Assembly: GCA_963792365.1 (NCBI GenBank)
Contig: CAWBVW010000001.1
Location: 912,592 to 976,591, forward strand
DNA from: an uncultured bacterium
GTDB taxonomy: Bacteria > Actinomycetota > Acidimicrobiia > Spongiisociales > ZC4RG35
Length of the DNA: 64,000 bases
Reading direction: 5' to 3'
Shown: one piece after another, positions 1,297 to 18,287 of the stretch
How positions within the stretch are numbered: position 1 is the stretch's first letter
Layout: every line of letters starts with the position of its first letter
Notes under the pieces: model-generated
Databases searched by the model: none
What the model was told of the DNA's origin: nothing
Seen by the model: the letters and a program-made list of their open reading frames with translations, nothing else
Made by a program: the position numbers and the translations under genes

Positions 1297-1369
1297 GGGC
1301 CCCTAGCTCAATTGGCAGAGCACCGGGCTTTTAACCCGTTGGTTGTGGGTTCGAGTCCCACGGGGCCCA
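1297..1369 (+). tRNA. tRNA-Lys: tRNA-Lys (anticodon UUU)
   Basis: Manual cloverleaf: acceptor GGGCCCC/GGGGCCC, D-stem GCTC/GAGC, anticodon loop CTTTTAA (UUU), T-arm GTGGG-TTCGAGT-CCCAC, discriminator A, CCA not encoded. Confidence 0.85.
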
Positions 1370-1578
1370 CGCCGAGTTTCCTCCGGAAACTCCAGGCGCT
1401 GCGAGGGATTTCGAGGGATCGAGCTCGAGCGCCATCTGGGTTTCTGGGTGTCGCGCCTTTTCGCGAGATCCTGGCTTTGTCCGTCGTTTGTCCGTCCGAT
1501 TCTGCGCGTAGAGCATCGTCGATGAGGGGTCGGTGCCCGGCCCGCAGAAATGGAAGTGACCGACCGGGAGCCGAACCC

Positions 1579-2640
1579 TCACCCGGCCTGAGCGAGGCTC
1601 TCCGCTTCGGACGGGAACAGGTGTCCGTACACGTCCATCGTCACCACGATCGAGGAGTGCCCGAGGTGGCGTTTGATCGCTTCTGGGTGGGCGCCCTTCG
1701 AGATGAGGAGGGCGGCGGCGGTGTGGCGGAGGTCGTGGATCCTGAGTGCTGCCGGGAGTTGTGCGGTCTCGAGCGCCGGCTGCCACACGTTCTTGGTGAA
1801 GTTCGAGTTCCGCAGCGGCGACCCGTTGGAGACAGTGAAGACGAGCCCGTCGGGGTCGGTGCCGCAGTAGGTGACCAGGTGGTGGTTGAGCATCTCCCGC
1901 AGGAAACTCGGGATCACCACGGTGCGAGACCGGTGGTTCTTGGTGGTCCCGAAGTGGAGGTCGCCACCCACCTCGGCGAGCGACTCGTTGACGTCGACCC
2001 GACCCCGGAGGACGTCGACCCGCCGCCGTCGGAGGGCAGCCGCCTCACCCCACCGGAGTCCGCCATAGGCGAGCACGTAGACGAGTGCCCGGTAGCGATC
2101 GTCGACGGCGTCGGCCAGCCGGTCGATCTCCACCGGGGTGAGGAACAGCTGCTCCCGCTTGGGTTTGCGTGGGAGGGCGATCCCGTCGGCCGGGTTGGCG
2201 GGGATGTACCGACTCCGGACCGCCGCCTTGAGGATCTGGGACATGACACGATGCGCCTGCCGGATACGGGATGCAGACAGCCCCGACTCCTGCATGTCCG
2301 CTACCCATTGCTCGATCGCCAGCCCGTCGATCCGGTCGAGCCGCACCCCACCGAAGCGAGGGATGATGTGATTGCGCAGCAGCGACTGGTAGCCGTCAAG
2401 CGTCTTCGGCTTGAGATGGGTGCGGGTGGTGATCCACCCGTGTGCCCAGTCGGAGAAAGGAGTGGCAGACAGGTCCGGATCGATCCACTCGCCCCGCTGT
2501 TTCTGAGCCTCGACCTGGATCAGGAAGCGGTCGGCGTCGACCTTGCGCCGGAACGTCTTGGAGCGCTCCCGCCCACCCGGATCGATGTAGCGAATCTGCC
2601 ACTTGGACTGATCGACCGGATGCCGGCGGATGTGCGCCAT
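1579..2640 (-). CDS. tyrosine-type site-specific recombinase (phage-type integrase)
   Basis: 353 aa; SAM-like N-domain, catalytic-region motifs (LRWGE, HDLRHT, MDVYGHL tyrosine) characteristic of the phage integrase family; sits next to the tRNA 3' end. Confidence 0.9.
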   Translation of the reverse strand: MAHIRRHPVDQSKWQIRYIDPGGRERSKTFRRKVDADRFLIQVEAQKQRGEWIDPDLSATPFSDWAHGWITTRTHLKPKTLDGYQSLLRNHIIPRFGGVRLDRIDGLAIEQWVADMQESGLSASRIRQAHRVMSQILKAAVRSRYIPANPADGIALPRKPKREQLFLTPVEIDRLADAVDDRYRALVYVLAYGGLRWGEAAALRRRRVDVLRGRVDVNESLAEVGGDLHFGTTKNHRSRTVVIPSFLREMLNHHLVTYCGTDPDGLVFTVSNGSPLRNSNFTKNVWQPALETAQLPAALRIHDLRHTAAALLISKGAHPEAIKRHLGHSSIVVTMDVYGHLFPSEAESLAQAG

Positions 2641-2643
2641 GGC

Positions 2644-2879
2644 TCAGTGTCCATCCTCCGAGGCCAACTCCGCAAGCCACTCCTCGACGTCGACCCACCG
2701 GAACCGCAGATGCCGCCCCACTCTGAACCCCCGCGGTCCCTTGCTTCGATGCCGCAGGTGTAGATCGTCTGCACCGGCACGTCGAGGTACGCAGCGGGGT
2801 CATCAACAGAGAGGAGGGGGTCACCAACAGCCCCGGTTCCTCGTACGGGCCCGTGTCGGGCACCATGATCGTCCCTCAT
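2644..2879 (-). CDS. small excisionase/AlpA-family HTH protein (Xis) with apparent 1-nt frameshift
   Basis: C-terminal frame encodes KGPRGFRVGRHLRFRWVDVEEWL* (classic Xis/HTH_17 tail) ending 4 nt before int start; N-terminal HTH part (LLSVDDPAAYLDVPVQTIY) lies in the adjacent frame (ORF 2520..2879), implying an indel near 2775. Confidence 0.55.
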
Positions 2880-3110
2880 GGGTGCACTGTATCAACTCAT
2901 TCCCATTCATACAAGCGTCAACTAACAATAAAACCAAGCGGTTCGAGGGGTCAGGTGGCTCGCCTGACAACCACTCTCCGTGACCGAACACACCGAGTTC
3001 ATCGGTGCCGATACCGGACACTTGGGGGAATATTTGCTTCTTATCCGGATCTGGTGATCTGAGATAGACCAGCGAGGGGAGAACAGGGCTTCGACATCTA
3101 CGATGAGAGG

Positions 3111-3326
3111 ATGCCCCTCTACCATGTGCGGCTCTCTGTTGCTGGCGAAACCTCAGACGAAGTCAAGGTTGACCTGTCCGAGACCGAGCTCGAAGAACAG
3201 TTCTTGGCTCCATATCGAGACGGCCGAGCGATCACGGTCAACGGTCGGACCATCGAGGTGCCGAATCTAGACCGATCCGGGTCTCCAAGTCGGAGAGATC
3301 TGCGCAAGATTTCGTACCCCAGCTGA
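3111..3326 (+). CDS. hypothetical small protein (71 aa)
   Basis: ORF in the AT-richer segment of the island just upstream of the TIR-like gene; no recognisable domain. Confidence 0.25.
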   Translation: MPLYHVRLSVAGETSDEVKVDLSETELEEQFLAPYRDGRAITVNGRTIEVPNLDRSGSPSRRDLRKISYPS

Positions 3327-3383
3327 AGGCTGAGGATCAGGTGTCGTCCGTTACGGTATTCGGCGGGCCGTCGTATCTGTGGC

Positions 3384-4010
3384 GTGCGGCCCCGCGCTGA
3401 AGATGTCACCGACCATTACATCAGTGGACCCCCCGGCCACCCACAGCAGGACGGCAGTGAAGACATCCGCTTGCGTCGCGTGACCGTGCCCTTGGGTCCC
3501 GGCGACGGTCGCAGCGTGTTCTTGGTTCACGGGCGAGATCTGTCAAAGGCTCGTGCGATGACTGAGTTCCTGCGCTCGCTAGACCTAAGGGTCATCGAAT
3601 GGGAGCAAGCCGTTCACCTTACGGGCGAGGCGAATCCGTATGTCGGTGACATCCTTGCCGCCGGCCTCGAAGCGGCCGATGCGGTCGTGGTCCTTGCGAC
3701 GCCGGACGACATCGTACGCCTGGATCCTGCACTCACAGATGGGGCCGATGACCCCGAGGTCAAAGAGGCGAAGCAGCCTCGTCAGAACGTCATCTACGAA
3801 GCCGGCATGGCTATGGCTCTCGCGGCGAACAGGACACTCATCTTGGCAACGAAGGGCACCAAGATCCTCAGCGATATCCAGGGACGACATGTAGCGCATT
3901 TGGACAACTCCGCTCAGGCGAGGAAGCGGATCGTTGGACGGCTTCAGGTTCTAGGCCTCGCCGTGGATGACTCCGGCCAGGACTGGCTCGAAGCTGGCGA
4001 CTTCGAATGA
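3384..4010 (+). CDS. TIR-like nucleotide-binding protein (COG4271 / Cap12-PycTIR-type TIR-like domain)
   Basis: Motif SVFLVHGRD...FL..L.L.VIEWE...ILAAGLEAADAVVVLATPDDIV matches the N-terminal signature of the CBASS Cap12 / Pycsar PycTIR TIR-like family (KVFIVHGHD...AVVLLTPDD); an alternative GTG start near 3479 is possible. Confidence 0.7.
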   Translation: MRPRAEDVTDHYISGPPGHPQQDGSEDIRLRRVTVPLGPGDGRSVFLVHGRDLSKARAMTEFLRSLDLRVIEWEQAVHLTGEANPYVGDILAAGLEAADAVVVLATPDDIVRLDPALTDGADDPEVKEAKQPRQNVIYEAGMAMALAANRTLILATKGTKILSDIQGRHVAHLDNSAQARKRIVGRLQVLGLAVDDSGQDWLEAGDFE

Positions 4011-4057
4011 CGGGATCTCGGCCTCCCCAATACCCCTCAGTCAAGGAGCGCGTGATC

Positions 4058-4393
4058 ATGGTGGTGAAGGTCGAGCGGCCGGGCACAGGGCCGGAGGTGC
4101 TCGTCTACTGGAGCCCGACCTGGCGGACCAAGCTCTTCTACAACACCACGCTTCGCTCGGATACTTCTGTCGAGGAGAAGTGCAAGTCATCTCTGGACGA
4201 GGTCTTCCGCATCCCGCCACATCGAGTCGACATCGATGAAACACAAGGCCGGATCTTGGTTGTCCGAAAGCGCAGTGAGGATCCCACAGAGTCTGAACTT
4301 GGACTTGTCGAGTACCGGTTTGTGGTCCAGCCCGTGGTCGTCGATGGTTTGCCTCGTTCGCTGCTCGAGGATGGACACAGCGGTTGGGCGTGA
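4058..4393 (+). CDS. hypothetical protein, translationally coupled partner of the TIR-like protein
   Basis: ORF 4007..4393 overlaps the stop of the upstream gene (ATGA); internal ATG at 4058 is preceded by AAGGAG with 8-nt spacing; no known domain. Confidence 0.55.
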   Translation: MVVKVERPGTGPEVLVYWSPTWRTKLFYNTTLRSDTSVEEKCKSSLDEVFRIPPHRVDIDETQGRILVVRKRSEDPTESELGLVEYRFVVQPVVVDGLPRSLLEDGHSGWA

Positions 4394-4812
4394 CGGGTAT
4401 GACTACTCAGTCGTTTCGCTTGCGTCGCTGATGCACGACGATCGGACGATGGAGGTGAACGGCAAGGAGGTGAGATTCGTCAGCGACTTTGGGGGCAACA
4501 CCCTTCGGCTGGTCCGCGCCTCTACCTTTGCGGCAGATTAGACCCCGTCTTGATGCCTACGGAGCGGGTCGCGTGAACGTAGCTGGCTGCTCTCTCGGGG
4601 AGGCGCGAACCGATCAACCGGGAACCCCAAGGGAGACGATCGTAGCGAACTCACGATCGAGGTTAGTCGCCCTGGCACTGCCAGCCTCCCTCGATATCGA
4701 GCGTCCATCCAGATCATTCACTGCGTGGCGCGTTATCGAACACCCATCGGCGTCCGGGACGCGGTAATCCCGCTCACCCCGCCAGCAATCGGATCCCCAC
4801 GATCCGCGGTCG

Positions 4813-5298
4813 CTACACAGATCCGTGACAGGCCTTGTACTTCCGCCCCGATCCGCACGGGCACGGATCGTTCCGACCAGGCTTTGCCGTTGTCGGCATG
4901 GTCGGTGGTCGCTGGCGAGCGGCTCGTGCCTCCAGCTGGGACGCCAGTGTTCGGAGATGGCGACGCTCGGCCTCCACTTCGGCCTCCCGCTCCGCGAGCG
5001 TCTGCTCTCGCTCGTTGAGTTCCTCTCGCACACGATCGATGAGCGCCACCGAATGATCGAGATCAGGATCGTCGACAGTGGACAGCTCGTGTTCGATGAG
5101 GATCGCGATCGCCCCGCCCATGGAGACGCCAACGACATCGCAGTATCGCTTCCACGTCGACCAGACCGCATCCGACACCGGCACTTTCACGAGCTGCGTA
5201 CCCTTCCCGTGATCGAGCTCGGCAAGCACCCGGCGATCGATCCGAGCCAACACTCCACGGTCAAGCGCCATCGCGACCCCCATGCGTTCCAACCGCAC
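4813..5298 (-). CDS. hypothetical protein with C-terminal SEC-C metal-binding motif
   Basis: C-terminus [15 protein letters not shown] is the SecA-C/SEC-C zinc-binding motif; coiled-coil middle; N-terminal region unassigned. Confidence 0.6.
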
Positions 5299-5315
5299 AC
5301 AGTTGCATCAAACTG

Positions 5316-5774
5316 ATGCCGAGTCTACTGGTATACCGCCAAGGGGTAGGTTGCAACTGTGTGGTCATGAGACCGCCGGCTCTGCACCTTGCTGTGAGTG
5401 CTGTAATGCTTTCCACGATGTTGCACAACAACGAACCGCACGGAACCTCGAGAGGCATTGAGATCACTGATGCGGTGATCGCCGAGCTCGCTCGGGAAGC
5501 CGAGGTGGGCTACGACACAGGGGCCGATGCGCACGCAACCGGCTCCAAGCTACGGCTGTTTGGACGAATAACCATCGAACCCGGCAAGCACGGCGGCCAA
5601 CCGTGCATCCGAGGACTCCGGATCCCGGTAGCGACGATTGTGGGCATGGTGGCCGCCGGCATGTCGGCCGACGAGGTCGTCGCAGACCTTCCAGACCTCG
5701 AGCCCGAGGACGTTGCGGAAGCCCTTCGCTTTGCGGCTGAGACAATTCGAGAAGGACACATCCCGCAGGTATGA
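5316..5774 (+). CDS. DUF433 domain protein (antitoxin-like)
   Basis: C-terminal half ITIEPGKHGGQPCIRGLRIPVATIVGMVAAGMSADEVVADLPDLEPEDVAEALRFAA matches the DUF433 consensus; true start may be internal. Confidence 0.65.
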   Translation: MPSLLVYRQGVGCNCVVMRPPALHLAVSAVMLSTMLHNNEPHGTSRGIEITDAVIAELAREAEVGYDTGADAHATGSKLRLFGRITIEPGKHGGQPCIRGLRIPVATIVGMVAAGMSADEVVADLPDLEPEDVAEALRFAAETIREGHIPQV

Positions 5775-5808
5775 GCCTTCCCTGACTCCCGACGAGGAGA
5801 CATAAACC

Positions 5809-7851
5809 TTGGGGCGGATGAGAACGACGATACCTCGGACTCGTCAATGCGACGGCGTGCGGGAACCGATCCGATCCGGCCGGCGTGACATGGAAGTGAT
5901 TTCTGCGTGTCGTTGGGGATCGATTGTGGTGCTGTCTCTCGCATTGGCAGCGTGTTCCCGTGCGGCACCGTTGGACACCTCCCCGCCGGTCGTGAGTTCG
6001 TCACCGGCTCCTGAGAGTTCGAGCACGGTGGCTTCGGCGTTCGAACCACCTGACATCGGCGAGTTCGATCCCGGCGTCGCATCTTCCGTCGAGGTCCCGG
6101 CCGTCGTCGACTGGGACGAGATCACTGCCGGTCTGCAGGAAGCACACTCAGGGAGCTCCGAGCTTGTGGCGGTAGCACCGGAGTCTTGTGTCGAAGTCGG
6201 GCCGGATCAATGGCGTGTCGACGGGTCAGTGACCGTTCCCACGGGGGTCGAATCACCGACGGTGCTTTTCCAGTTTGTCATGCAAAACGACGACGTGATC
6301 GAGTCGATCCCGGTCCTGGTCGAGTTCAGCGAGTCGGGTCGGTTCACTTTCGTCGCCGACTTCTTGACCCGATCGCTGCGAGAGGACGAGTTCTGGTGGC
6401 CCACGTACGGCTATTCGCCCGGAGTCGAGGGCTGCCTCATCGAGGTCGCATACGGTTCGGCGGCGACCGAGAGTGGATCGTGGACGATCGATGCCCAACG
6501 ATCCAGCGAGCCGATCAGCTGGACAGCGCCGCCCGACTCGATCCAGGCGTTGGGTTTGGGAGCGTCGATGATTGATCCCGACGACCCGAGGACCAGCTGG
6601 ATGACCATGGCCTGGCTCGATATCGGCCCAACTCTCGAAACAGTGTGGGTCCCGACCGACCCGCTGCTGCCTCTGGTACGGATGTCGCTGTCTGGAGCCT
6701 GCGACAGCATGACCTTAGGAGGCAACGGAACAAGCGCGGCCGTGGTCGAGCTGTTCCATCGTTGCGACCTGACCTATTTGGTGGTTGGAGATCCGCCTGC
6801 CGGATCGGGCGTGCCGGACATCGACGGATTCGAGTATGCGACTTGGATCGATCTGCCCGCCCTTTACACCAAGCGAGACGGATGGAACATCGTGATTCAC
6901 CCCGACTCGCTCGATGCCGACTGGAGTGCCATTTCCGACGTCGCTCGCTCGCTCACATCATTCACGAATCTTCGGGTGTCGGACCGCGATGTGCCCGGTG
7001 TAGGCGAGACCGTTAGCGAAGCAATCTCCGAGATCATCGAACGTGACGGTCTCACCGAGCGGAGCCGACGCCAGGTCACGCCAGAACTCGTGACCGTCGT
7101 CGCAACCGGTGAAGACCTCGGACAGTACGTGGGAGACATCCCAGGCACCTACGTCGCAACGTTCGATGTCAACCTGCGCGACGGCGCCTGGGTGGCGGGA
7201 GACCCGGGTCTCTCCGGCGGCGGTGACCTCTGTCTCACCGGTTTCGGCTCGAGCCATCCGTCTGCACCCGACACATACTCGGCGGCCCTCGTGGGTGCCG
7301 AACCGACCTGGACCATCCAGGAAGCCGCCGGCGACGGCGGATGGCTCTCGCTCGACACCGTCGATGGTGTCGCCTGGATGGCCGAGCTGAAGTCGGTCGC
7401 CTACCGAGCGATCGACGAGCATGGCGACCCCGTGTATTGCACTGCCGGTGTACTCGGCGATGGCGAAACCTGGTCACCGTGGCAACTCCCGAACGCCCGC
7501 TGGGACCTCGACCTCACCGCCATCCCCAACCAGTCACTCTCTGACGGTGACACCATCCGAATCGAGGGCAGCGGATTCCCCAAGAACGCCAACATCGACA
7601 TCGCCATTTGCCGTGTCGCGGACCCTGGACGACCCGACATCGCAGATTGCCAGTCGTTCGAGGAGTCAGAAGAGCGCTACGGCCGCACCGAACCGGACGG
7701 CACGATTGATCGCACCTACACCGCCACGTCGAAATTCATCGACGACTACGGACAACCGATCGACTGCACCACCGACCGCTGCGTGATCCAAGTCCGAACC
7801 AACGTCGGACACCTCCGAGCCGGTCAAGCGTCGATCTCGTTCGGTGGCTGA
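5809..7851 (+). CDS. large secreted lipoprotein of unknown function (island cargo)
   Basis: 680 aa; lipobox-like LSLALAAC near the N-terminus, Ser/Pro-rich linker, Cys-containing C-terminal module (CRVADPGRPDIADCQ...CTTDRC). Confidence 0.6.
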   Translation: MGRMRTTIPRTRQCDGVREPIRSGRRDMEVISACRWGSIVVLSLALAACSRAAPLDTSPPVVSSSPAPESSSTVASAFEPPDIGEFDPGVASSVEVPAVVDWDEITAGLQEAHSGSSELVAVAPESCVEVGPDQWRVDGSVTVPTGVESPTVLFQFVMQNDDVIESIPVLVEFSESGRFTFVADFLTRSLREDEFWWPTYGYSPGVEGCLIEVAYGSAATESGSWTIDAQRSSEPISWTAPPDSIQALGLGASMIDPDDPRTSWMTMAWLDIGPTLETVWVPTDPLLPLVRMSLSGACDSMTLGGNGTSAAVVELFHRCDLTYLVVGDPPAGSGVPDIDGFEYATWIDLPALYTKRDGWNIVIHPDSLDADWSAISDVARSLTSFTNLRVSDRDVPGVGETVSEAISEIIERDGLTERSRRQVTPELVTVVATGEDLGQYVGDIPGTYVATFDVNLRDGAWVAGDPGLSGGGDLCLTGFGSSHPSAPDTYSAALVGAEPTWTIQEAAGDGGWLSLDTVDGVAWMAELKSVAYRAIDEHGDPVYCTAGVLGDGETWSPWQLPNARWDLDLTAIPNQSLSDGDTIRIEGSGFPKNANIDIAICRVADPGRPDIADCQSFEESEERYGRTEPDGTIDRTYTATSKFIDDYGQPIDCTTDRCVIQVRTNVGHLRAGQASISFGG

Positions 7852-7865
7852 GCCGCCAACAGCAC

Positions 7866-8098
7866 TCACTCCGTCTCGCCAGGGACGTATCGGCTCGACA
7901 TGAGCCATTCGAACACTTCATGCCGGAGGAAGTAGAGCTTGCGGCCGCCCTCCTTGCGGTGAGCGGGGATGATCCCTTCCCGTGCCCACAGGCGGACGAT
8001 CTGGTCTGACGTTTGTAGCAAGTCGGCGAGCTGCTTGGCGTCCATCACCGCCGGCACCTCCGGGTACCAGCGGTCGTAGTCGAAGTCCTCGCCCATCC
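7866..8098 (-). CDS. excisionase-family HTH DNA-binding protein
   Basis: C-terminal half MDAKQLADLLQTSDQIVRLWAREGIIPAHRKEGGRKLYFLRHEVFEWL is an Xis/MerR-type HTH; ORF 7866..8219, likely internal start. Confidence 0.6.
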
Positions 8099-8101
8099 CT
8101 C

Positions 8102-8371
8102 TCAGTCCCGCCCAGTGTCGTCGGATGCGGCTTCGTCCTCGGGAACGGGCTCGCCCGGCGTGTACCGCTTCATGTCCTCGAGCACCTCTTCCCGGAGGAA
8201 CCGGAACTGCTGACCCCACCGGAACGCCCGCAGCTCCCCCCGGTGCACCTTGTCCCGCACGTCTCCGATCGTCGAATGCATCATCTCCGCCACGTGAGCG
8301 GTGGTCAGCACCAGCGGGTACTCGGCCCGGAAGCGTGCAAGGATCTCACCGGAGAAGTCAGAACCGGCCAT
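8102..8371 (-). CDS. excisionase-family HTH DNA-binding protein
   Basis: AEMMHSTIGDVRDKVHRGELRAFRWGQQFRFLREEVLEDM is an Xis-like HTH; ORF 8102..8419 in tandem with the previous gene. Confidence 0.55.
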   Translation of the reverse strand: MAGSDFSGEILARFRAEYPLVLTTAHVAEMMHSTIGDVRDKVHRGELRAFRWGQQFRFLREEVLEDMKRYTPGEPVPEDEAASDDTGRD

Positions 8372-8493
8372 TACGGCGCAAGATACTCGACGAGATTTCA
8401 CATCAGAACGCATCGGCACGGATCGTTAAAGACCGGTGCCACGATTCCCATTATTAAAGCAATCGGCATCTAGGTTTAGTAAGCTGAGAACCA

Positions 8494-9684
8494 ATGCAAG
8501 GAGACTTGAACAACGAACCGTGGGGCTCCGGGGCGATGCGCACCACCCTGGCCGGCTACCAAGCCTTCCACCCGGCTCCCCTGCCGGCGTCGCTCACCTA
8601 TCCCGAAGCGACCGTGGTCAAGCTGACGGAAGCCACTGCCGCCGTCAACCGGCTGGGTGGAGCCAGCCGGCTGCTCCCCACCCCCGAGCTGCTGATCGGG
8701 CCCTACGTCCGCTTGGAGGCGATTCTCAGCTCGCGCATCGAAGGTACTCGCACCACTGTCGGCGAGCTCCTCCAATACGAGGCAGCCGGTGACGACGAGC
8801 CGACCGGTGACATCCGCGAAGTCACCAACTACGTCCGCGCCCTCAACCACGCCGTTCGACGCCTCGACGAACTCCCCCTGTCGAACCGGCTGATCCGAGA
8901 AGCCCACGCGCTGCTCATGGAAGGGGTCCGGGGCGAATACGCCAACCCAGGTGAGTTCCGCACGACACAGAACTGGATCGGAGCACCGGGCTCCACCATC
9001 AACACCGCCCGGTTCGTTCCCCCACACCCCGACGAGGCGAAGGATGCGATGGGCGAGCTGGAGCGGTTCCTCCACGACCGGAGCCTCCCCGACCTGATCG
9101 CCATCGGATTTGCCCACTACCAGTTCGAGACCATCCATCCCTTTGTCGACGGCAACGGCCGCATCGGACGGCTCCTCATCATCCTCATGCTGATCGAACG
9201 AGGAATCCTCTCGGCCCCCGTCCTCTACCTGTCCGCCTACTTCGAGCAGAACCGCCAGACCTACTACGACCTCCTCGACCACACCCGATCGACCTCGGAC
9301 CCGTTCCCCTGGCTCGACTTCTTCCTCACAGGCGTCACCGTCATGGCCACCGAAGCAGAGCAACGCGCCGTCCGCCTCATCGACCTCCAACACACCGTCC
9401 GAACCCAACTCCTCGACCAAGGTGCCTCCCCCACCGCCCTGCGACTGGGTGAGGTGATCTTCGACGTCCCATACGTCACGGCCGCCGGCATCGCCAAACG
9501 ACTCGACGTCACGTTCCCGACAGCGCAGAAGGCCATCGACGACCTCACCCGAGCCGAGCTCCTGGAAGAGATCACCGGCCAACAACGAAATCGCGTCTAC
9601 CTCGCGCGAGGAGTCCAGGACGCGGTCTACGGGGCACCAAGCGACCGTGATCCCGGACAGGAATCGGCTTCCCGACACGGATGA
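8494..9684 (+). CDS. Fic family protein (Fic/DOC AMPylase fold) with C-terminal HTH
   Basis: Canonical Fic motif HPFVDGNGRIGRLL (HxFx[DE]GNGRxxR); about 400 aa with winged-helix C-terminus, typical long Fic architecture. Confidence 0.9.
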   Translation: MQGDLNNEPWGSGAMRTTLAGYQAFHPAPLPASLTYPEATVVKLTEATAAVNRLGGASRLLPTPELLIGPYVRLEAILSSRIEGTRTTVGELLQYEAAGDDEPTGDIREVTNYVRALNHAVRRLDELPLSNRLIREAHALLMEGVRGEYANPGEFRTTQNWIGAPGSTINTARFVPPHPDEAKDAMGELERFLHDRSLPDLIAIGFAHYQFETIHPFVDGNGRIGRLLIILMLIERGILSAPVLYLSAYFEQNRQTYYDLLDHTRSTSDPFPWLDFFLTGVTVMATEAEQRAVRLIDLQHTVRTQLLDQGASPTALRLGEVIFDVPYVTAAGIAKRLDVTFPTAQKAIDDLTRAELLEEITGQQRNRVYLARGVQDAVYGAPSDRDPGQESASRHG

Positions 9685-10541
9685 GTCGGTCACCAACGCT
9701 CATCCGGTGCACATTCTGCAACACGAGAGGGCCGCGCTCTCGACAGGACGTCATTCCGAGGTGGGTCGGAAAACTCCTCGGTGGCGACGCTCCCTTCTAC
9801 GAAGACCGCTCAACGATTGCCGGCGGCGTGTTGCACCCGATCGTCCAATCCCGACCACACCACTCGAAAACGCTGTCAATCATGAAGCTGCGGAACGTGT
9901 GTGATGAGTGCAACACCGGGTGGATGCATGATCTCGAAGAGCGTGCTCGGCCCGTCTTGGCCCCGATTCTCACTAGGAGCGATGCGGTGCTGCACAGCAG
10001 TGAGGTCGGTGTCACCGTCCAATGGGCCTTGAAGACGGCACTCACTTTCGATGCCTGGTTCCGTGATCGAGCGGTCGATGCCCACGTTGGTACGTGCCGA
10101 TTCCATATCCTTCAGCGGCCCTGGCCGGGAGTCTTCGTGTGGCTCGCCCGGTATCGATACCCAAGTGAAGGCGTCGTGATGCGGCAAGCACGTTTTCGGC
10201 AAGTGAGTGGTCGATTTCCGACATCAGGTCGAGTCGCCGCCACCGATGTCGTTGTATCCATCCAGCTGGGGAACCTCGCCATCCGCGTCGCAATCCTCGG
10301 GGACGGTGGATACGGCCAACCCTCCATAGTGAAGCCAGCCGGACACTGGATCCTCGGCCACCCGATGGAGGTGCCCTACAAATGGCCAACGACGCCCGTG
10401 AGCAATCGCGAGCTCGCACAGGCCGCTGGAGCAACGCCGAGACTGCTGATCCCCACCGACGGACCAGTCGAGCGATTCACGATTCGGCTTCCCCGAGGTA
10501 CGAAGGCGGTGCGCGCCGGATCTGACGAACCCACGCCCTAG
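9681..10541 (+). CDS. hypothetical protein overlapping fic stop (Cys-cluster CTFCN...CDECN)
   Basis: Start overlaps the fic stop (ATGA coupling); two CxxC-like pairs; no assignable family. Confidence 0.6.
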   Translation: MSRSPTLIRCTFCNTRGPRSRQDVIPRWVGKLLGGDAPFYEDRSTIAGGVLHPIVQSRPHHSKTLSIMKLRNVCDECNTGWMHDLEERARPVLAPILTRSDAVLHSSEVGVTVQWALKTALTFDAWFRDRAVDAHVGTCRFHILQRPWPGVFVWLARYRYPSEGVVMRQARFRQVSGRFPTSGRVAATDVVVSIQLGNLAIRVAILGDGGYGQPSIVKPAGHWILGHPMEVPYKWPTTPVSNRELAQAAGATPRLLIPTDGPVERFTIRLPRGTKAVRAGSDEPTP

Positions 10542-10705
10542 GTCCTCGGCAAGCTCCGGGCGGTCGCAGGGTGCTTGAGCCTTGTCCGTATCTTGTCCGT
10601 GAGAGGACGAGAAACGCTGCAAGATGACACGAACGGACCACAACCGAAATCCTTGATTTCATTGGGTTTCCGGGGGTTTCTCCTGGTCAGCGACGTCGTC
10701 AGAAG

Positions 10706-10752
10706 GGGCTTTTAACCCGTTGGTTGTGGGTTCGAGTCCCACGGGGCCCACG
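10706..10752 (+). repeat. attR: 47-bp direct repeat of the tRNA-Lys 3' half (matches 1325..1371)
   Basis: Read directly: gggcttttaacccgttggttgtgggttcgagtcccacggggcccacg is identical at 1325-1371 and 10706-10752. Confidence 0.9.
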
Positions 10753-10914
10753 TCGCTGGCCTTTGGCCAGCTAACGGAGTTCCCTCCGGAAACTCCAGCC
10801 CTGCCAGGCGATTACGAGAGCCGGACTCGAGCGCCATTGGGTTGCCGGGTGTCTGCCCTTCGCTCCGGATCCTGGCTCGTGGGTTTGTCTGTCGGTGTCC
10901 ATCTGATTCTGGGG

Positions 10915-11000
10915 AACGGATCATCGATGGCTCGGGCGAGGGTCCCCGCTCCAGATGGGAACAGGCGTCCGTAGACGTCCATCGGTCGGCGAGCCTGCAA
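10915..11000 (-). pseudogene. remnant of a second integrase 3' end (degraded tandem island)
   Basis: 10752-10990 is about 75% identical to 1371-1600 (tRNA downstream flank plus int 3' end); encodes RPMDVYGRLFPSGAGTLARA versus int TMDVYGHLFPSEAESLAQAG*. Confidence 0.7.
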
Positions 11001-11130
11001 GCCCGAACGTCGAGACTCCTGACGGCTTCAGCGGCGCTTCGGACCGGAATCGCTCCTCCGGTCGCGGCACGGGTGGGTGCGGACTGCCTTCGTCGAATCA
11101 GCGCACGAAGACAGTCCGACCTACAACTTC

Positions 11131-12212
11131 CTATCCGCTGACGGCTGCTTGTAGGTAACCGATCAGGTCGGGCACCTTGTTCAGCGTGGTGTGTCCACCC
11201 GGATACGATGTGAACGAGACATCGAGACCGGCGCCGGCGAGGCGGCTCTCGAGCAGCAGTCCAGAGTCGACCGTGCCGACCGTGCCGTCGTCGAGTTGAC
11301 CGAGCCGCTCGAGATCGGCGCCGATCGATCCATCGGGATCACGGAGCGCGAACCAGTCGGCACCGGTGACGTCGACCTGTCTCGGGGGTATCCCATCCTC
11401 AGCCACCCACAGGAAGAACCTTGCGTCCAGATCCGATGGCCAGCGGCTGGGATCGATCATCGAGGCGAGCTCCTGCTGAGCCCCAGCTTGATCGGTCTGA
11501 AAGACGGCGTCGAAGTTCTCCGAGTAGAGGAGGTACTCGCCGTCGCCCAGCACGACGCCGGTGGCGGCGGTGAGCGGCTCGTCGACCATGCATCCATCGA
11601 TCGGTTCGAGGATTGGCTGGAGGGATGCGAAGAGCGTCGGCCCCACACCTGCCGAGAACCCGTACAGGACCGTTCGTGATGGGTCGCCACCGACCTGGCG
11701 GGCGTGCTGCTGGGCGAATGCCACCGCGCAACTCGCCTCCCTTCTCCAGAGGGTGAACGAATCGAGGGTCACCGGGAAGGAGTGCTCGTCGACCCAAGTT
11801 GGTGCGAACACGATCATCCCCTCGGTGGCAGCCGCCGCGGCGATGGCGGCGTTGGTGTCGTCGTCCTTCGTACCGAGCCCGTGAAACGCCATGACCACGG
11901 GCCAGGGCCCTTCGCCCACCGGGGTGTAGATGTCCATGGATATGTCGCGGCCGTCGACCGTCATGTAGACGACATCGGACGTCTCGATGAATCGTTCGGT
12001 TGGCGGTGCGACCGTGGACGACGACGTACTTGGCACCGTTTCAGTCGTCGACGACACGGGAGCGGCCGCTGTCGTCGGTGTGACCGGGGGCGGGGGCGAC
12101 GCTTCGGTCACCGGTGAAGTGTCGGAAATGGCCGCCGACCCACAGGCAGCGACGGTCAAGGCGACAGCCGCGGCGATCGCCGTCGTCCGTTGCCCTTTTC
12201 CTGCATGCTTCA
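11131..12212 (-). CDS. alpha/beta-hydrolase fold lipoprotein (esterase/lipase-like)
   Basis: Lipobox LTVAACGS, Pro/Thr-rich linker, HGLG oxyanion motif and GFSAG nucleophile elbow (GxSxG); ORF 11131..12327, likely start about 12212. Confidence 0.75.
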
Positions 12213-12329
12213 TGAGGTGATCCCTTTCTGTTCTCGCCGCGTCCTGGCTGGACCGGCTGACCTCGGAGCAGCATGAGGGACTGGGCTTAAGGGATCGTGA
12301 CCTCCACGTAGAGTCGTGCATTAACAACT

Positions 12330-15300
12330 TTGCAACCCGTGGTGAGTGATATGCCCAGGATGGAGTTCCAAGCGCTTGGCCCGCTGGCGGTGTATCGCGA
12401 CGGCGACGCAGTGGACCTCGGATCGCCGAAACAGAAAGCGGTGTTGGCGCTGCTACTCATGCACGCCAACCAGCCAGTGGCGACTGATCGGATCATCGAG
12501 GAGATCTGGGGCGACGACAGTGATGGGAAGATCAACGCCCTGCGCGTCTACGTGTCGCGGTTGCGGTCGGCCCTGGAGCCCGACCGGGGGCGAGGCGGGA
12601 GCTCCGTCCTCGAGACCAGCGGGAACGGATACCGGTTGGCGGTCGAGCCCGATCACTTCGACGTGGCCCGCTTCGAGCGGGAGCTCGCCAGGGCACGGCC
12701 GCTTCGAGGAGAGGACCCGGCCGGAACTGCGGAGGTCCTGGCGTCGGCGCTGAGCCTCTGGCGAGGTCCGGCGTACGCCGACTTCGCCTACGACAACTTC
12801 GCTCAGGTGGAGCGGGCCCGCCTACACGAGGCGCGCGTCGTGGCCTACGAGGACCGTATCGAGTCCGACTTGGCGCGGGGTCTGTCAGGCGAGCTGGTCA
12901 GCGAGCTCGAAGTGCTGCGTGACGAGCATCCGCTACGGGAACGCCTCGTGAGCCATCAGGCGCTGGCGCTCTACCGATCGGGCCGCCCCGCCGACGCCCT
13001 CCGGGCCATCGAACGATTCCGTCGCAACCTCGGTGGCGAGCTTGGCCTCGACCCTTCGCCTGGCCTGCTTCGTCTCGAAGAGCAGATTCTGCTCCACGAT
13101 CCCGCGATCCAACCCCGACATGGTGCGGCTGGTCGGGACAGGCCGAGAACAGAGGTTGCCAACCCCTTCAAGGGTCTCAGAGCCTTCACCAGCGACGACG
13201 CTCCGAACTTCTTCGGGCGGAATGCCCTGGTCGCAGAATTGCTGCGCGTCATCGGCCAGGGTCAGCGGCTGGTCGCAGTCATGGGCGCCAGTGGTTCCGG
13301 GAAGTCGAGCGTCGTCAACGCCGGGCTGCTTCCGGCATTGGCCAAGGGTGCCCTCACGGGTTCCGATCTCTGGCTGGTGGCGAACATGATGCCCGGCGCC
13401 CACCCTTTCGCAGAGCTCGAGGTAGCGCTCCTCCGCACGATCATCGACCCCCCTGACAGCCTGGACGAACAACTCCGGGACGGCGACGCCGGATTCATCC
13501 GAGCGGCCTTGCGGATACTCCCTGACAACGACAGCCATCTGCTGCTGGTGATCGACCAGTTCGAAGAGCTGTTCACGCTGGTCGATGACGCCGTCCGTCG
13601 TCGGTTCCTGTCGAACCTGGTCGCCGCGGTCGACGATCCCCACGAGCGCGTCACTGTTGTGATCACCCTGCGGGCCGACTTCTACGATCGGCCGCTCCAG
13701 CACCCCGAGTTCGGGGCCAGGCTCGGGGCAGGGGTCGTCAACGTCACGCCCATGACGGCCGAGGAGTTGGAGGAGGCCGCCCTCGAGCCTGCCCGGCAGG
13801 TGGGTGTCGGCTTCGAGCCGGCGCTACTGGGACAACTCATCTCAGACGTCGGGAGCCAGCCGAGCGCGCTGCCTCTCTTCCAGTACACGATGACGGAGCT
13901 ATTCGACCGTCGCGGTGGAGACACGCTTCTGGCCTCGTCCTACAGAGCGATGGGGGGCGTCGAAGGAGCGCTCCAACGACGCGCCACCGACTTGTACGAG
14001 CAGCTCGATCCGGCCGAGCAGGAGGCAGCACGCCAGCTGTTCTTACGGCTCGTGACGGTGTCGGAGCACGACAAGAGGACCCGGCGCCGCGTGGCGGCGA
14101 GGGAGATCGTGTCGCTGGTCGACGACACGGTGACGATGTACGCCGTGTTGAAGAAGTTCGGCGACCACCGGCTGCTTTCCTTCGACGCCGATCCCCTGAC
14201 CGGGGCGCCCACCGTCGAGGTTGCGCATGAATCACTGCTCACGGCATGGCCAACCCTGGCCGGATGGATCGACGACAGCCGGGATGATCTTCGTCGGCAT
14301 GTCAGCCTCACCGTGGCACTACGGGAGTGGCAGCTCGCCGACCACGACCCGAACTACCTGATGACGGGCGCCCGTCTCTCCGAATACGAGGCATGGAGTC
14401 GGACCTCCCAAGTGTCGCTCAACTGCGCCGAACGTGCCTACCTCGACGCCGGTGCCGCCAAACGAGCCGAGGAACGCCACATCGAGGAGAAGCAGCGTCG
14501 GCGAGAGACCAGATCCCGTCGGCGGATGTGGGCATTGATCGCCGTGATGGCGAGCGCCCTCGGCGTCGCTGCGCTCGTGCTCACTGGTGTCTTCGCCAGC
14601 GAAACGCCGGAAGTGATGTTCTTCGCCAACCGGCTGGATGACCAGTGGTTTGCCAATGTCGGGTCGGGTCTCGACCGGGCCGAGCGCGAGCTCGACATGG
14701 AACTGGTTGACGTGACATGGGCGGTCGATCCCGTGGCGGAGTTTCGGCAGCTCGCGGCGTCGGGTGCCCAGTTCATCGTCGTCAGCGATGACGTGTTCAT
14801 AGAGGTGGACCCGTCGGTGCTGGCTGACCATCCCGACGTCCAATTCGGCATCATCGAAGGGACGGCGAGCGCAGACAACGTGACCTCGGTCGAGTTCGCC
14901 AACGAGGAGGGGGCGTTCCTCGCCGGGGTGGCCGCCGCCTCCAAGAGCGAGACGGGCATCGTCGGATTCATCGGGGGAAGGAAGGAGCCGGAAGTCGAGG
15001 CGTTCCGTGCCGGATTCGAGGCGGGCGTGCAATCGGTTGATCCGCGGACCGAGGTGCTCGCCGTGTATGTCGATCAGTTCAACGAGATCAACGGTTTCGG
15101 CCGGCCCGACCTTGGAGAGGCCAGAGCGCGTGCTCTCTACCAAAGAGGGGCCGACGTGCTGTTCGCGGCGGCCGGGACCTCGGGGCACGGCATGTTCTCC
15201 GCGGCCGTAGCCGAGTCCGAGGCGCTGGGACGGGACCTGTGGGCGATCGGCGTCGACAACGACCAATGGTTCGAAGTGGAGCCCGAACAACAACAGCACG

Positions 15301-16199
15301 TGCTCACGTCCATAGTGAAACGGGGCGACCTCGCCGCGTACCGCCTGGTCGAGCACATGCTGAACGGCGGGCCGACCGGCGTCGCTTTCCGGATGGGACT
15401 CGCCGAGGGTGGCATGGCCTATTCAACCCAGAGCGACGCCCTGACCTCTGACATCGTCGCCAGGCTGGACGACGCGATCGTCGACATCTCCGAGAGCCGG
15501 ATCACGGCGCCGCCGGCCCCGACCGGTCCGACGCTGACCGTCGACTACCAGGGGAACGAAATTGTGGCGCCGCGAGGCATAGACGGTCTGGACCTGCGAG
15601 TTGCGATCGAACCGGGTACCTACCAAGTCGATGCACTCGGTGTGCCAATCGCCATCAATCTCGGTCCGGAGTGGTGGGTCCTCGACAACATCGAGGGCGC
15701 CACCGGGTTCGGGCACCCGGAGTCCAGCGGCCACGGGGATCGTGAGGTGTGGTTCTTCCGCCCGACCCTTCTTGCGGACCCGACCCAGCCCGGGGCCGAC
15801 GTCCAAGACCAGGTGTGGTGGCCCTTGGAGGACATCGACGGCTGGCTCGAGGCACTGGTCGACGGCATCGTGACCGGAGACCCGCAGGAGGTGGAGGTCG
15901 GTGGTCGGCCCGCCACCTACTTCGAGGCCGAGGTGACCGACCCCGACGTCTGCGGCCCGTTCCAACATTGCGCGGGCTTCGTCATCAACACGTTCCTCGG
16001 CCCCAGCCAGGTCAGCGCCTGGTCATTCGAGCCGGGCGTACATCACAGAGTGTGGTGGATCGACGCCGGGGACCAACCGCCGCTCGTCATCATCGCCGCA
16101 GACTTCACCGGCGACCATGATTTCGGGAAGGCGGTCGACGAACTGCTCGATGGACTCGTCATCGGCGAGTTCGGCCCACACCCGGTCGACGCTGGGTAG
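12330..16199 (+). CDS. multidomain regulator: SARP-type winged-helix + BTAD, STAND P-loop NTPase, TM helix, BMP-family (PnrA/Med-like) binding domain, C-terminal extension
   Basis: N-term OmpR/PhoB-type DNA-binding + BTAD (AfsR/DnrI-like); FKGLRAFTSDDAPNFFGR...VMGASGSGKSSV Walker A of a STAND/nSTAND-like NTPase; hydrophobic helix MWALIAVMASALGVAALVLTGVF; BMP-family signature EGAFLAGVAAASKSETGIVGFIGG. Confidence 0.8.
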   Translation: MQPVVSDMPRMEFQALGPLAVYRDGDAVDLGSPKQKAVLALLLMHANQPVATDRIIEEIWGDDSDGKINALRVYVSRLRSALEPDRGRGGSSVLETSGNGYRLAVEPDHFDVARFERELARARPLRGEDPAGTAEVLASALSLWRGPAYADFAYDNFAQVERARLHEARVVAYEDRIESDLARGLSGELVSELEVLRDEHPLRERLVSHQALALYRSGRPADALRAIERFRRNLGGELGLDPSPGLLRLEEQILLHDPAIQPRHGAAGRDRPRTEVANPFKGLRAFTSDDAPNFFGRNALVAELLRVIGQGQRLVAVMGASGSGKSSVVNAGLLPALAKGALTGSDLWLVANMMPGAHPFAELEVALLRTIIDPPDSLDEQLRDGDAGFIRAALRILPDNDSHLLLVIDQFEELFTLVDDAVRRRFLSNLVAAVDDPHERVTVVITLRADFYDRPLQHPEFGARLGAGVVNVTPMTAEELEEAALEPARQVGVGFEPALLGQLISDVGSQPSALPLFQYTMTELFDRRGGDTLLASSYRAMGGVEGALQRRATDLYEQLDPAEQEAARQLFLRLVTVSEHDKRTRRRVAAREIVSLVDDTVTMYAVLKKFGDHRLLSFDADPLTGAPTVEVAHESLLTAWPTLAGWIDDSRDDLRRHVSLTVALREWQLADHDPNYLMTGARLSEYEAWSRTSQVSLNCAERAYLDAGAAKRAEERHIEEKQRRRETRSRRRMWALIAVMASALGVAALVLTGVFASETPEVMFFANRLDDQWFANVGSGLDRAERELDMELVDVTWAVDPVAEFRQLAASGAQFIVVSDDVFIEVDPSVLADHPDVQFGIIEGTASADNVTSVEFANEEGAFLAGVAAASKSETGIVGFIGGRKEPEVEAFRAGFEAGVQSVDPRTEVLAVYVDQFNEINGFGRPDLGEARARALYQRGADVLFAAAGTSGHGMFSAAVAESEALGRDLWAIGVDNDQWFEVEPEQQQHVLTSIVKRGDLAAYRLVEHMLNGGPTGVAFRMGLAEGGMAYSTQSDALTSDIVARLDDAIVDISESRITAPPAPTGPTLTVDYQGNEIVAPRGIDGLDLRVAIEPGTYQVDALGVPIAINLGPEWWVLDNIEGATGFGHPESSGHGDREVWFFRPTLLADPTQPGADVQDQVWWPLEDIDGWLEALVDGIVTGDPQEVEVGGRPATYFEAEVTDPDVCGPFQHCAGFVINTFLGPSQVSAWSFEPGVHHRVWWIDAGDQPPLVIIAADFTGDHDFGKAVDELLDGLVIGEFGPHPVDAG

Positions 16200-16550
16200 T
16201 CCCGGCGGATGCGGCGCTGGTGTCGCGCACCCTCGCAAGACCCTGGCTCCCCCGGTCTTGTCCGCCGGTCGTCCTCTGACGCTGCGCATGGAGCGGCGTC
16301 GACGAGGAGTCGGTGCCCGTACCAGAGCAGCAGGAGTCTGCACCGGGTGCGACTCCTCACCCGCTTGCTGTGAATGTGTTCGCTTCGGACCGAACAGGTG
16401 GCCGAAGTCATCCATCGTCACCGGATGATGCCTCCGGACGTTCGTCACTTGTGTGGTTGCCACGAGGGTTGTGCTGGCCCTGCAGATTCAGCGGAACCAG
16501 GCTGAGACCGGTGGGGTACTCTCGAATCTCAGTCGACGAAGGGCAATGCC

Positions 16551-17105
16551 GTGCTTCGGGGCAACGGAATCGAATTGCGGCTCGTCCGGGAGGGCGACCT
16601 GGGGACCCTGTACAACCTTCTGACAGATCTCGGCACGAGGGGCAGCTACTTCCCGCTCGGGGTGATGAGCGAAACCCGCCTGCGCGCCGAGTTCAACGAG
16701 AACGGCTTCTGGGATCAAGAAGAGGGCATGCTGCTGATCGTCGACCATGAGGATCAGATCGTTGGAGAAATCGAATACTTCCCGATCATCCACTATCTGC
16801 AGGGCTACGAGATCTCCTACCAGCTGTTCGGAACACAGCACTCAGGAAAAGGACACGCCACCGAAGCGGTCGATCTGTTGGTCCGCTACCTCTTCGGACG
16901 CAAACGGGTCAATCGTATGCAACTGAACATCCACCCTGACAACGCTGCCTCGAAGAGAGTGGCGGAGAAATGCGGCTTCACCTTCGAGGGGTTGATGCGG
17001 GGTTGTTGGTTCCACCAAGGTGAATACCACGACTTGGAAGTCTGGTCGCTGCTCAGGGCCGAATCCCAAGCCCGAGTGACGGCCGACAGATCAACCGCTG
17101 GTTGA
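16551..17105 (+). CDS. GNAT family N-acetyltransferase (RimJ/RimL-like)
   Basis: 184 aa; acetyl-CoA binding region QLFGTQHSGKGHATEAV...RVAEKCGF typical of the GNAT fold. Confidence 0.8.
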   Translation: MLRGNGIELRLVREGDLGTLYNLLTDLGTRGSYFPLGVMSETRLRAEFNENGFWDQEEGMLLIVDHEDQIVGEIEYFPIIHYLQGYEISYQLFGTQHSGKGHATEAVDLLVRYLFGRKRVNRMQLNIHPDNAASKRVAEKCGFTFEGLMRGCWFHQGEYHDLEVWSLLRAESQARVTADRSTAG

Positions 17106-17519
17106 GTGGCTGACCGCTCTGCAACATGACGAGCCCCCCGTGCGTCGGCGAGTTCACGGCCCGAGCGGATCCCGCCCAGGGCGGGGCGGAGGGGCTGGCG
17201 TCCATCAGGGTCAAACGAGCGGAGTGGAGACGTAACGCTTCGTCGACATCGAGCATCAGATCCGAAGGACAGTCCCGATCCCGTGCAACACACGTTCTGC
17301 GGATACGGACCGAACCTGCCCTGCCTGAGCTTTCGGGCCACGCTCTAGGTCGGACTCTCTAGCGCGGATGAGCACCTGGAACGGATAGACGCGATCGATA
17401 CTGGTGGTAATCGGGACGACGTCACTGCGCCACGTTCTGCTTGGCAGTTGTCGTGTTGGCCGGGCCGGCTCGTGCCGGATCGACAGCCACGCCCGAATCT
17501 CGCCACGCAGAACCAGCGG

Positions 17520-18010
17520 CGCGTCAGCCTGGCGCCGCAGTACATCGACGTCCCCACCCGAGCCGAACTCCTGGCAGAGATCACCGGCCAACAACGAAAT
17601 CGCATCTGTCTCGCACGAGGAGTCCAGGACGCGGTCTACGGGGCACCAACCGACCGTCATCCCGGACAGGAATCGGCTTCCCAACACGGATGAGTCGGTC
17701 GCCAACGCTCATCCAGTGCACATTCTGCAACACGAGAGAACCGCGCTCTCGCGAGGACGTCATTCCGAGGTGGGTCGGAAGACTCCTCGGTGGCGACGCG
17801 CCCTTCTACGAAGACCGCTCAACGACTGCCGGCGGCGTGTTGCACCCGATCGTCCAGTACCGACCACACCACTCGAAAACGCTGTCAGTCATGAAGCTGC
17901 GGAACGTGTGTGATGAGTGCAATACCGGGTGGATGCACGATCTCGAAGAGCGTGCTCGGCCCGTCCTGGCCCCGATTCTCACTAGGAGCGATGCGGTGCT
18001 GCACAGCGGT
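17520..18010 (+). pseudogene. truncated duplicate of the fic 3' end plus the 5' half of its downstream partner gene
   Basis: About 490 bp, roughly 90% identical to 9555-10010; encodes LAEITGQQRNRICLARGVQDAVYGAP... and MSRSPTLIQCTFCNTREPRSREDVIPRWVGRLLGG... (ORF 17441..18265), then diverges. Confidence 0.8.
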
Positions 18011-18287
18011 GGCGTCGGTCGGCGTCAAGCTTCACTTGCGCCTCGATCATGTCCGCTGTCGGGGATGATCGGTGCCAGACGCATCCTGGCACCGATCGCC
18101 TTCACCGCCCGGGACAAACGGCCCCACAGTGGCGGTCGAAGTCGTTGTGGTCGAGTGGGCGCGACTGGCGACGACCGCCATCGAGATCCTCTCTCGATGA
18201 GACGTCCACCGTCCGCATCGCAGCGACACGCGTCTTCGATCGAACCGATCGCCTCCGCATCTTGACGCTCCCGCCAACGTGCAAAGA

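Follow-up and report, generated by a model that had tools for sequence, protein, structure and literature searches.

How does a 47-bp piece of a tRNA gene come to stand twice in one bacterial chromosome, 9.4 kb apart, and why does the DNA beyond the second copy resemble the DNA that follows the intact gene? Both questions are raised by a stretch of contig CAWBVW010000001.1 (assembly GCA_963792365.1, positions 912,592 to 976,591) from an uncultured Acidimicrobiia-like actinobacterium. The whole stretch was scanned and is called the window here (64 kb, G+C 64.8%; coordinates count from its first base). In the reading that we favor, at a probability of about 85%, a small integrative island, element A (1297-10752, about 9.4 kb between the core copies), sits in a tRNA-Lys gene and was preceded at that tRNA by two islands of the same family that have since decayed, relics B and C. 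This reading rests on direct repeats, paired arm sites, homologies of the stumps, comparisons within the element family and empty sites in relatives.

The tRNA-Lys target and the attachment sites of element A

According to ARAGORN, the window contains a single tRNA gene, a tRNA-Lys(UUU) on the forward strand (anticodon ttt; 1297-1370; Rfam tRNA 71.5 bits), which is the integration target. Its last 46 bases together with one extra base, that is, the segment that starts at the anticodon stem and extends one base beyond the tRNA 3' end (1325-1371, forward strand), recur at 10706-10752 on the same strand with 47 of 47 positions identical, just as the original prediction had it, and the bases flanking each copy differ. 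The first copy forms the core of the left attachment site (attL), and the second, the displaced 3' part of the tRNA gene, that of the right one (attR). With the complete gene at one end and its 3' part repeated at the other, the element shows the direct-repeat arrangement of a tRNA-targeting integrative genomic island, and the present tRNA-Lys gene was probably rebuilt from a 5' part of the host and a 3' part supplied by the element. Between the repeats the G+C content is 0.627, compared with 0.672 in the left flank and 0.648 in the window as a whole.

Next to attL, with 208 bp between the end of the gene and the core, lies a gene for a tyrosine integrase of 353 amino acids, IntA (1579-2640, reverse strand). 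A tyrosine integrase between the repeats had been predicted, and the assignment is confirmed by Pfam (Phage_integrase, 1.7e-20, together with a SAM-like domain), by PHROGs (integrase, 5e-76) and by the full catalytic set, all six residues being present (R196, K234, H302, R305, H328 and Y338) in a gene that adjoins an attachment site. IntA is 87% identical to the related integrase P0002 over residues 1-352 and 34% identical to mycobacteriophage integrases. More than 2000 relatives were found at E<=1e-30, the nearest of which carry the label Acidimicrobiia. Immediately upstream of int, at the position expected for an excisionase (Xis) gene, we located an excisionase-type HTH_17 gene (2644-2879, reverse strand) by tblastn with the Xis of a related element (L081) and by three-frame translation. 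The small Xis that had been proposed is thus present as a gene, but its frame is broken by a 1-nt deletion in the present sequence.

The flank between the attL core and int, the P arm (1372-1578, forward strand; delimited by alignments), contains a 58-nt insertion and a pair of short repeated sites, TTGTCCGT CGT TTGTCCGT (1477-1495, forward strand). A corresponding pair, TTGTCCGT ATC TTGTCCGT, is found on the P' arm at the far end of the element (10582-10600, forward strand). Each pair lies 106-124 bp inside its own core copy, so that the two ends are symmetric, and within a pair the TTGTCCGT sites follow an 11-bp period. The 16-base pattern TTGTCCGT-N3-TTGTCCGT has exactly two matches in the 64 kb, both on the forward strand and both within element A. 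Moreover, the opposite-strand form ACGGACAAACGACGGACAAA is conserved at the integrase end of seven related elements (L081, L084, L002, L082, L093, L094 and L095; Lnnn designates loci in relatives' genomes or metagenome-assembled genomes (MAGs), Pnnnn related integrase proteins), and copies on the far arm are present wherever that end was available (L081, 4400/4411; L094, 4456/4467; L082, 606/617). At the level of sequence, element A therefore has the hallmark of a lambda-like attP, the attachment site of the excised element, namely repeated arm-type sites on both arms that are distinct from the core. We predict that Int binds the TTGTCCGT pairs as arm-type sites, presumably through its conserved N-terminus. 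An attP of about 290 bp would result, in which the 47-bp core, which is the tRNA 3' part, has an arm-site pair at a distance of 106-124 bp to its left and to its right. Taken together, the exact repeat, the symmetry of the arm sites, the layout of attachment sites in relatives and the empty sites described below uphold the earlier proposal that the island targets tRNA-Lys and that attL and attR are real.

Several further features of the attachment regions were observed. A second common motif, CAT(C)TGGGTT(T/G)C(C/T)GGG(G/T)GT, occurs on the P arm of A (1433-1451), on its P' arm (10660-10677) and in relic B (10834-10852); it is located between the core and the arm-type sites and may be a further protein-binding site. 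The attR junction (10674-10750), made up of the displaced 3' part and the element bases 10674-10705, matches the Rfam tRNA model over its full length at 33 bits, with the acceptor stem broken, and can be called a weak pseudo-tRNA; in its equivalent in the related locus L003 (17434-17510) ARAGORN calls a 77-nt tRNA-Lys. The P' end of the element weakly imitates a tRNA 5' half. In addition, the end of element A can pair with the last core bases and the start of the relic B hairpin through a 12-nt inverted repeat (10685-10696 and 10750-10761, 11 of 12 positions complementary), and the fold of 10674-10765 has a z of -3.8.

Integrase stumps of two probably older islands beyond attR

The DNA that follows attR contains the remains of a second integration module, relic B (10753-10989, forward strand; blastn and tblastn). 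It starts with a 22-24-bp palindromic insert directly after the attR core, the hairpin (10753-10776), continues with a decayed P-arm flank and ends with the last 19 or so codons of an integrase gene (10929-10989, reverse strand). Two blocks can be aligned with the region after the intact tRNA, 10777-10911 with 1374-1504 (75.5% identity) and 10936-10984 with 1592-1640 (85.7%), which together comprise about 190 alignable bases. In tblastn, an in-frame remnant ..RPMDVYGRLFPS.. matches Int residues 335-352 on 10982-10929 with 72% identity. The original prediction had described about 240 bp after attR as roughly 75% like the flank of the tRNA and the 3' end of the integrase gene, had recognized the in-frame remnant and had taken the homology as the footprint of an earlier insertion. 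Both observations were reproduced, and the interpretation has gained support from the indels of relic B, which are like those of the element in L002, and from relic flanks in relatives.

A second stump, relic C (16219-16425, forward strand), had been overlooked. It begins 20 bp past the stop codon of a gene for a 1289-aa regulator and consists of a decayed P-arm flank with a 58-nt insertion of the A type, followed by the last 21 or so integrase codons (16359-16421, reverse strand). Its similarity to 1447-1645 amounts to 70% over 209 bp (blastn, E 3e-16). Integrase residues 333-353 are retained, with the catalytic Tyr replaced by Phe, and the stump is without an att core.

The genes after attR had been regarded as decayed cargo of one older element. 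An origin as cargo of old elements is probable, but there are two relics, B extending from 10753 to about 16218 and C from 16219 to at least 18019, and the genes following each stump would therefore stem from different elements, an α/β-hydrolase-like gene and the regulator gene from one, a GNAT gene and a Fic fragment from the other. By Pfam matches and by position between the stumps, the putative cargo of relic B (11131-16199) comprises the α/β-hydrolase-like gene (11131-12327, reverse strand) and the gene of the SARP-nSTAND1-PnrA regulator (12330-16199, forward strand), in a segment with a host-like G+C content of 0.658. The 1289-aa regulator is a fusion of unusual architecture that joins a SARP DNA-binding domain, BTAD, an nSTAND1 NTPase and a PnrA/Bmp-type substrate-binding domain. 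The putative cargo remains of relic C (16551-18019; Pfam, tblastn and blastn) consist of the GNAT gene (16551-17105, forward strand; Pfam), a MazF/PemK-like fragment (about 17268-17420, reverse strand; Pfam), a 3' fragment of a Fic gene (17532-17690, forward strand) and a 5' fragment of orf286 (17690-18019, forward strand), the last two identified by tblastn at 79% and 92%, respectively. A duplicate of a fic fragment at 17.5 kb had been noted before. It is indeed present, but it is larger than was thought, since 9523-10010 and 17532-18019 are 93.2% identical over 488 bp (blastn) and the similarity reaches into the first 110 codons of orf286.

A degenerate third att copy, which had been suggested for 18.0-18.9 kb, did not emerge: the core, and arm plus core, were aligned locally to 16.1-16.26, 17.9-19.3 and 10.75-30 kb, and the scores were no better than those of shuffled sequences. 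Similarly, sensitive alignment of the segments following the stumps (10984-11135 and 16420-16555) with the remainder of int did not exceed the level of shuffles. In the coordinates of element A, stumps B (ending at 10985-10989) and C (ending at 16421-16425) break within about 5 bp of each other, at about 1640-1647, which corresponds to Int residue 333 or so, seven codons ahead of the catalytic Tyr. For one pair of independent deletions such a coincidence has a probability of about 1%; it is not remarkable here, because five relics of different length in the family give ten pairings. No conserved DNA motif that would explain the shared breakpoint was found. Two candidates for such an explanation were discarded. 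A third arm-type site in the Tyr-Gly-His codons (TGTCCGTA, about 1622), as a cause of stump retention, was ruled out for lack of conservation at the DNA level, the Gly being encoded by GGA, GGC or GGG in different relatives, and for a pseudo-att site at the breakpoint a comparison by eye with the T-arm core gave scattered matches only.

Empty sites, the element family and rival readings

The best matches of the PQQ-propeller gene that flanks the tRNA come from Acidimicrobiia-like MAGs, and the comparison with related genomes that the original prediction had called for revealed empty tRNA-Lys sites in two of them (81-87% identity to the window in the DNA of the flanking gene). In L001, the same PQQ gene (81% DNA identity) and tRNA-Lys are followed by unrelated genes, with neither an integrase nor a repeat. 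In L002, the closest relative (PQQ protein 91% identical), the PQQ-adjacent tRNA-Lys is empty, and a second tRNA-Lys 8 kb further on holds an element whose integrase gene is 89% identical to that of A at the DNA level and is frameshifted (P0003). Both tRNA-Lys(UUU) genes of L002 are full (11293-11366 and 19301-19374), with ABC-transporter and FtsX genes between them; the PQQ-adjacent one has an odd anticodon loop, CTTTTCT.

A third relative, L003, has a counterpart of window 8475-10616, the right end of element A, that is 94.7% identical, compared with 80% for the PQQ gene, 86-88% for two oxidoreductase genes and 71-77% for an HD-GerE gene in the neighborhood. Given these values and the differing contexts, the element is more conserved than its surroundings. 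Between its att copy and the HD-GerE gene, L003 has different DNA, and neither relic B nor relic C is present. A tblastn match suggesting an integrase stump beside attR in L003 was rejected, as it rests on a tRNA-antisense part only. Alignment of L003 11000-21041 with window 8.4-27 kb also revealed that, relative to the PQQ gene, the segment reaching from the element to the genes at 20-27 kb is inverted and to some extent reordered. Furthermore, L003 has a 1.3-kb insert between orf286 and attR, and its contig ends 1.5 kb further, within the element.

More distant members share the backbone of element A. In L081 (Int 74% identical) and L094 (67%), two helix-turn-helix (HTH) genes at the far end are followed by cargo, a SEC-C gene, an HTH_17-type xis and int next to the tRNA. 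L082 and L083 (83%) carry DarT, a Macro-domain protein and an AAA_15/DUF2813 ATPase. The target is tRNA-Lys(UUU) in the window, L081, L082 and L084, tRNA-Arg(CCU) in L094 and L095, and tRNA-Met(CAT) in L093, and in relatives int abuts or overlaps the target tRNA. The integrases of L093, L094 and L095 are 64-67% identical to IntA, and the same paired CGGACAA arm sites are retained at these loci, a pattern suggesting that core specificity was switched while arm recognition was kept. A scan of metagenome contigs for an A-, B- or L002-type flank next to the core returned 0 matches, and an integrase-based metagenome scan returned seven short loci.

In most close relatives the int frame passes through the P-arm flank, the arm sites and the att core into the tRNA gene in antisense and stops in the D-loop. 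The tail translates as ..QTDKRRTK...EVGPVGLEPTTNGLKARCSAN, in which the conserved QTDKRRTK is the arm-site DNA itself, and the overlap of the int open reading frame (ORF) with the tRNA gene is 63-64 nt for all three target tRNAs (L081, L082, L084, L093, L094 and L095). In L081, for example, the int ORF spans 10001-11236 and the tRNA 11174-11247, and the predicted C-terminus is ..GLKARCSAN when read from attL and ..GLKALQEGSDDEGDSQEEDS when read from attP. Between L081 and L084, differences at codon positions 1, 2 and 3 number 8, 6 and 13 in the tail and 31, 18 and 154 in the body, pointing to weak constraint on the tail. We consider it unlikely that the Int C-terminus, if translated, would signal the integrated versus the excised state and thereby act as a built-in switch, which the sublineage of A and relic C would have lost with the tail through the 58-nt insertion.

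The stumps after attR might be local duplicates of the attL region of A that diverged later, an idea suggested by the fact that all three copies span the same segment and by the nearly common endpoint of B and C. A four-way alignment of the flanks of A, relic B, relic C and the L002 element makes this most improbable. Relic B and the L002 element share two indel characters that set them apart from A, the hairpin directly after the core and the lack of the 58-nt insertion. A is without the hairpin and has the insertion (about 1526-1584) in common with relic C, in which the core-proximal flank, where a hairpin would sit, is deleted. B and C are 63% identical, less than either is to A (A-B, 74%; A-C, 71%), and the A and the L003 copy of Fic/orf286 each share 93% identity with the fragment near C. 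The indel pattern therefore argues for separate arrivals and against local duplication. In addition, relic flanks of differing lengths lie beyond the far att site in L081 (27 bp), L094 (43 bp) and L082 (about 150 bp), so that occupied and re-occupied sites are the norm for these elements. A prophage, a phage satellite or an actinomycete integrative and conjugative element (AICE), in place of a plain integrative island, is likewise quite unlikely. The 34% identity of IntA to mycobacteriophage integrases and several small ORFs without annotation would be in keeping with such an origin, but the element measures just 9.4 kb, has no DNA match in phage or plasmid collections, and yielded no capsid, terminase, portal, packaging, FtsK/Tra, relaxase or Rep protein in searches with Pfam, PHROGs and NCBIfam. 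The virion structural and packaging genes of a prophage and the conjugation and replication genes of an integrative conjugative element or AICE are both missing from this set of matches. A lifestyle as a helper-dependent satellite or mobilisable element may apply.

A more serious contender, though still a less probable one, is that A is a fixed fossil that has lost excision, so that 1.3-18 kb would represent three generations of dead islands. It draws on two of the observations that weigh against the reading we favor. One is the 1-nt deletion in xis, which lies near 2755 and turns TGGCGG into TGCGG, the L081 Xis matching in two frames (tblastn); the other is the length of IntA, 353 aa compared with 410-411 aa in most close relatives, its C-terminus being 58 residues shorter as a result of the early stop that the 58-nt insertion provides. 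Also on the negative side, the relatives compared show little synteny downstream of the tRNA, no near-identical genome without element A was found, and relics B and C have no bounding right-hand att site, which leaves the outer limit of the array bracketed between 18019 and about 19977, where the HD-GerE gene is conserved in L003. Against a fossil speak the attR core, which is unconstrained and still identical in 47 of 47 positions, the two perfect arm-site pairs, and an integrase with all catalytic residues that is 87% identical to P0002. Since the 58-nt insertion is common to A and the much older relic C, integrases with a short tail have integrated at least twice. The xis frameshift comes down to one base of a GG run, and it reflects either a pseudogene or a (long-read) assembly error; the int gene in the MAG of the nearest relative is frameshifted as well (P0003). 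Element A may still be able to excise.

A succession of islands at one tRNA thus remains the reading that best accommodates these observations. Elements of the A family, in Acidimicrobiia-like actinobacteria, would use tyrosine recombination of the lambda type to enter a tRNA gene in its 3' part. Each new arrival would integrate at the tRNA and push the older element downstream, and the older elements would then lose their integrases through deletion, leaving core, flank and 19 codons in the case of relic B, and flank and 21 codons in that of relic C. By the usual logic the newest element adjoins the intact tRNA. The flawless attR core and arm sites of A agree with this, as does the decayed state of B and C. 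Since an element could in principle also enter a distal att copy, this order of arrival is a probable one.

Backbone, cargo and known systems

Element A consists of a backbone with Int, Xis and the SEC-C protein at one end, an HTH pair at the other and variable cargo in two slots, one with the block of the TIR-domain gene between Xis and SEC-C, the other with a Fic gene and orf286 between the HTH pair and attR. Apart from int and xis, the backbone comprises a gene for a SEC-C motif protein (4813-5298, reverse strand; Pfam), 37% identical to the L081 protein, and two overlapping ORFs of the HTH_17/excisionase type (7866-8219 and 8102-8419, together 7866-8419, reverse strand; Pfam). The SEC-C gene adjoins Xis-Int in relatives, the same gene being present in L081, L094 and the P0014 contig. 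The HTH pair is 76% and 70% identical to the pair in L081 and also occurs in L094.

The cargo appears to consist of anti-phage and toxin-like genes (SoFic, the TIR protein and the DUF433 protein). It includes a TIR-domain protein of the CAP12/Pycsar-effector type (3384-4010, forward strand; Pfam PF10137, 1.7e-26; PADLOC PDC-S35, PycTIR), a DUF433 protein (5316-5774, forward strand; Pfam PF04255, 9e-23) and a 680-aa protein with a neocarzinostatin-like C-terminal domain (5809-7851, forward strand; Pfam and NCBIfam). In the latter, the final 110 residues match the neocarzinostatin or enediyne chromoprotein family, and the remainder is without a match. The Fic gene (8494-9684, forward strand; Pfam Fic_N and Fic) matches the PADLOC model of SoFic, a single-gene anti-phage system in that database, over positions 5-354 of 361 (2e-113), and scores 165 bits against the NCBIfam SoFic equivalog, under the cut-off of 550 bits. 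It is thus of the SoFic type and not an equivalog, and a role in defence is predicted. Translationally coupled to it is orf286 (9681-10541, forward strand), a 286-aa ORF that is conserved in L003, has no function assigned, and gave no match in Pfam or PADLOC.

The process that we describe, tandem site-specific accretion followed by decay, is known, and the understanding of its mechanism is unchanged; the locus is a well-preserved case from a little-studied lineage. It allows island turnover at a tRNA hotspot to be dissected into the core with its arm sites, the backbone with two cargo slots and the occupants of three generations, and it comes from an uncultured lineage of soil actinobacteria whose mobile elements have received little description. 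It further defines a family of small islands with defence-type cargo that uses the same arm-type sites across tRNA-Lys, tRNA-Arg and tRNA-Met targets, a definition that could aid the annotation of islands in MAGs and the mining of cargo slots for defence genes.

Tyrosine integrases of the lambda and pSAM2 type make use of arm-type sites and an excisionase and integrate into the 3' ends of tRNA genes. Element A conforms to this type in its core, which begins at the anticodon arm and equals the 3' part of the tRNA, in repeated arm sites about 100 bp off the core on both arms, and in a small excisionase-type HTH gene, frameshifted here, upstream of int. Unlike pSAM2, it has no replication or transfer genes, and it differs from the type in that its integrase is about 34% identical to characterised phage integrases and in that the int frame of most relatives enters the tRNA in antisense.

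For the ICESt1/ICESt3-related elements of Streptococcus thermophilus and for streptococcal integrative and mobilizable elements, tandem accretion and decay to cis-mobilizable elements (CIMEs) have been described (PMC5704250, citing Pavlovic 2004 and Bellanger 2011), in a scheme of three steps: integration at the 3' end of a target gene, decay by loss of the recombination genes, and renewed integration at the same att site. The scheme yields an array of one live and several decayed elements set apart by att copies, and the same three steps would account for the array in the window. In contrast to ICESt1/ICESt3, the present element lacks conjugation or mobilisation genes, and its host is an uncultured Acidimicrobiia-like actinobacterium. 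Moreover, relics B and C are not strict CIMEs, as B has a core on its left side only and C has none, with no further core up to 30 kb. In Dehalococcoides, ssrA-specific tandem genomic islands employ a serine recombinase, a 20-bp repeat and the tmRNA gene as target (PMC3146451). They resemble our array in that islands are stacked after one small RNA gene whose 3' end recurs in direct repeats, that the integration module is found beside attL on the reverse strand, that the islands are non-conjugative and that some units are decayed; an att repeat embedded in the integrase gene was reported for one relative in that work (PMC3146451). The array described here differs in its tyrosine recombinase with arm-type sites, its 47-bp repeat and its tRNA-Lys target. 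Finally, integrase-associated defence islands occur at tRNA hotspots (PMC10121019, PMC10201445). Element A shares with them a small size and predicted anti-phage cargo, SoFic and TIR here and DarT and Macro in a close relative; what sets it apart is a host of another phylum, another element family and the placement of its cargo at two slots.

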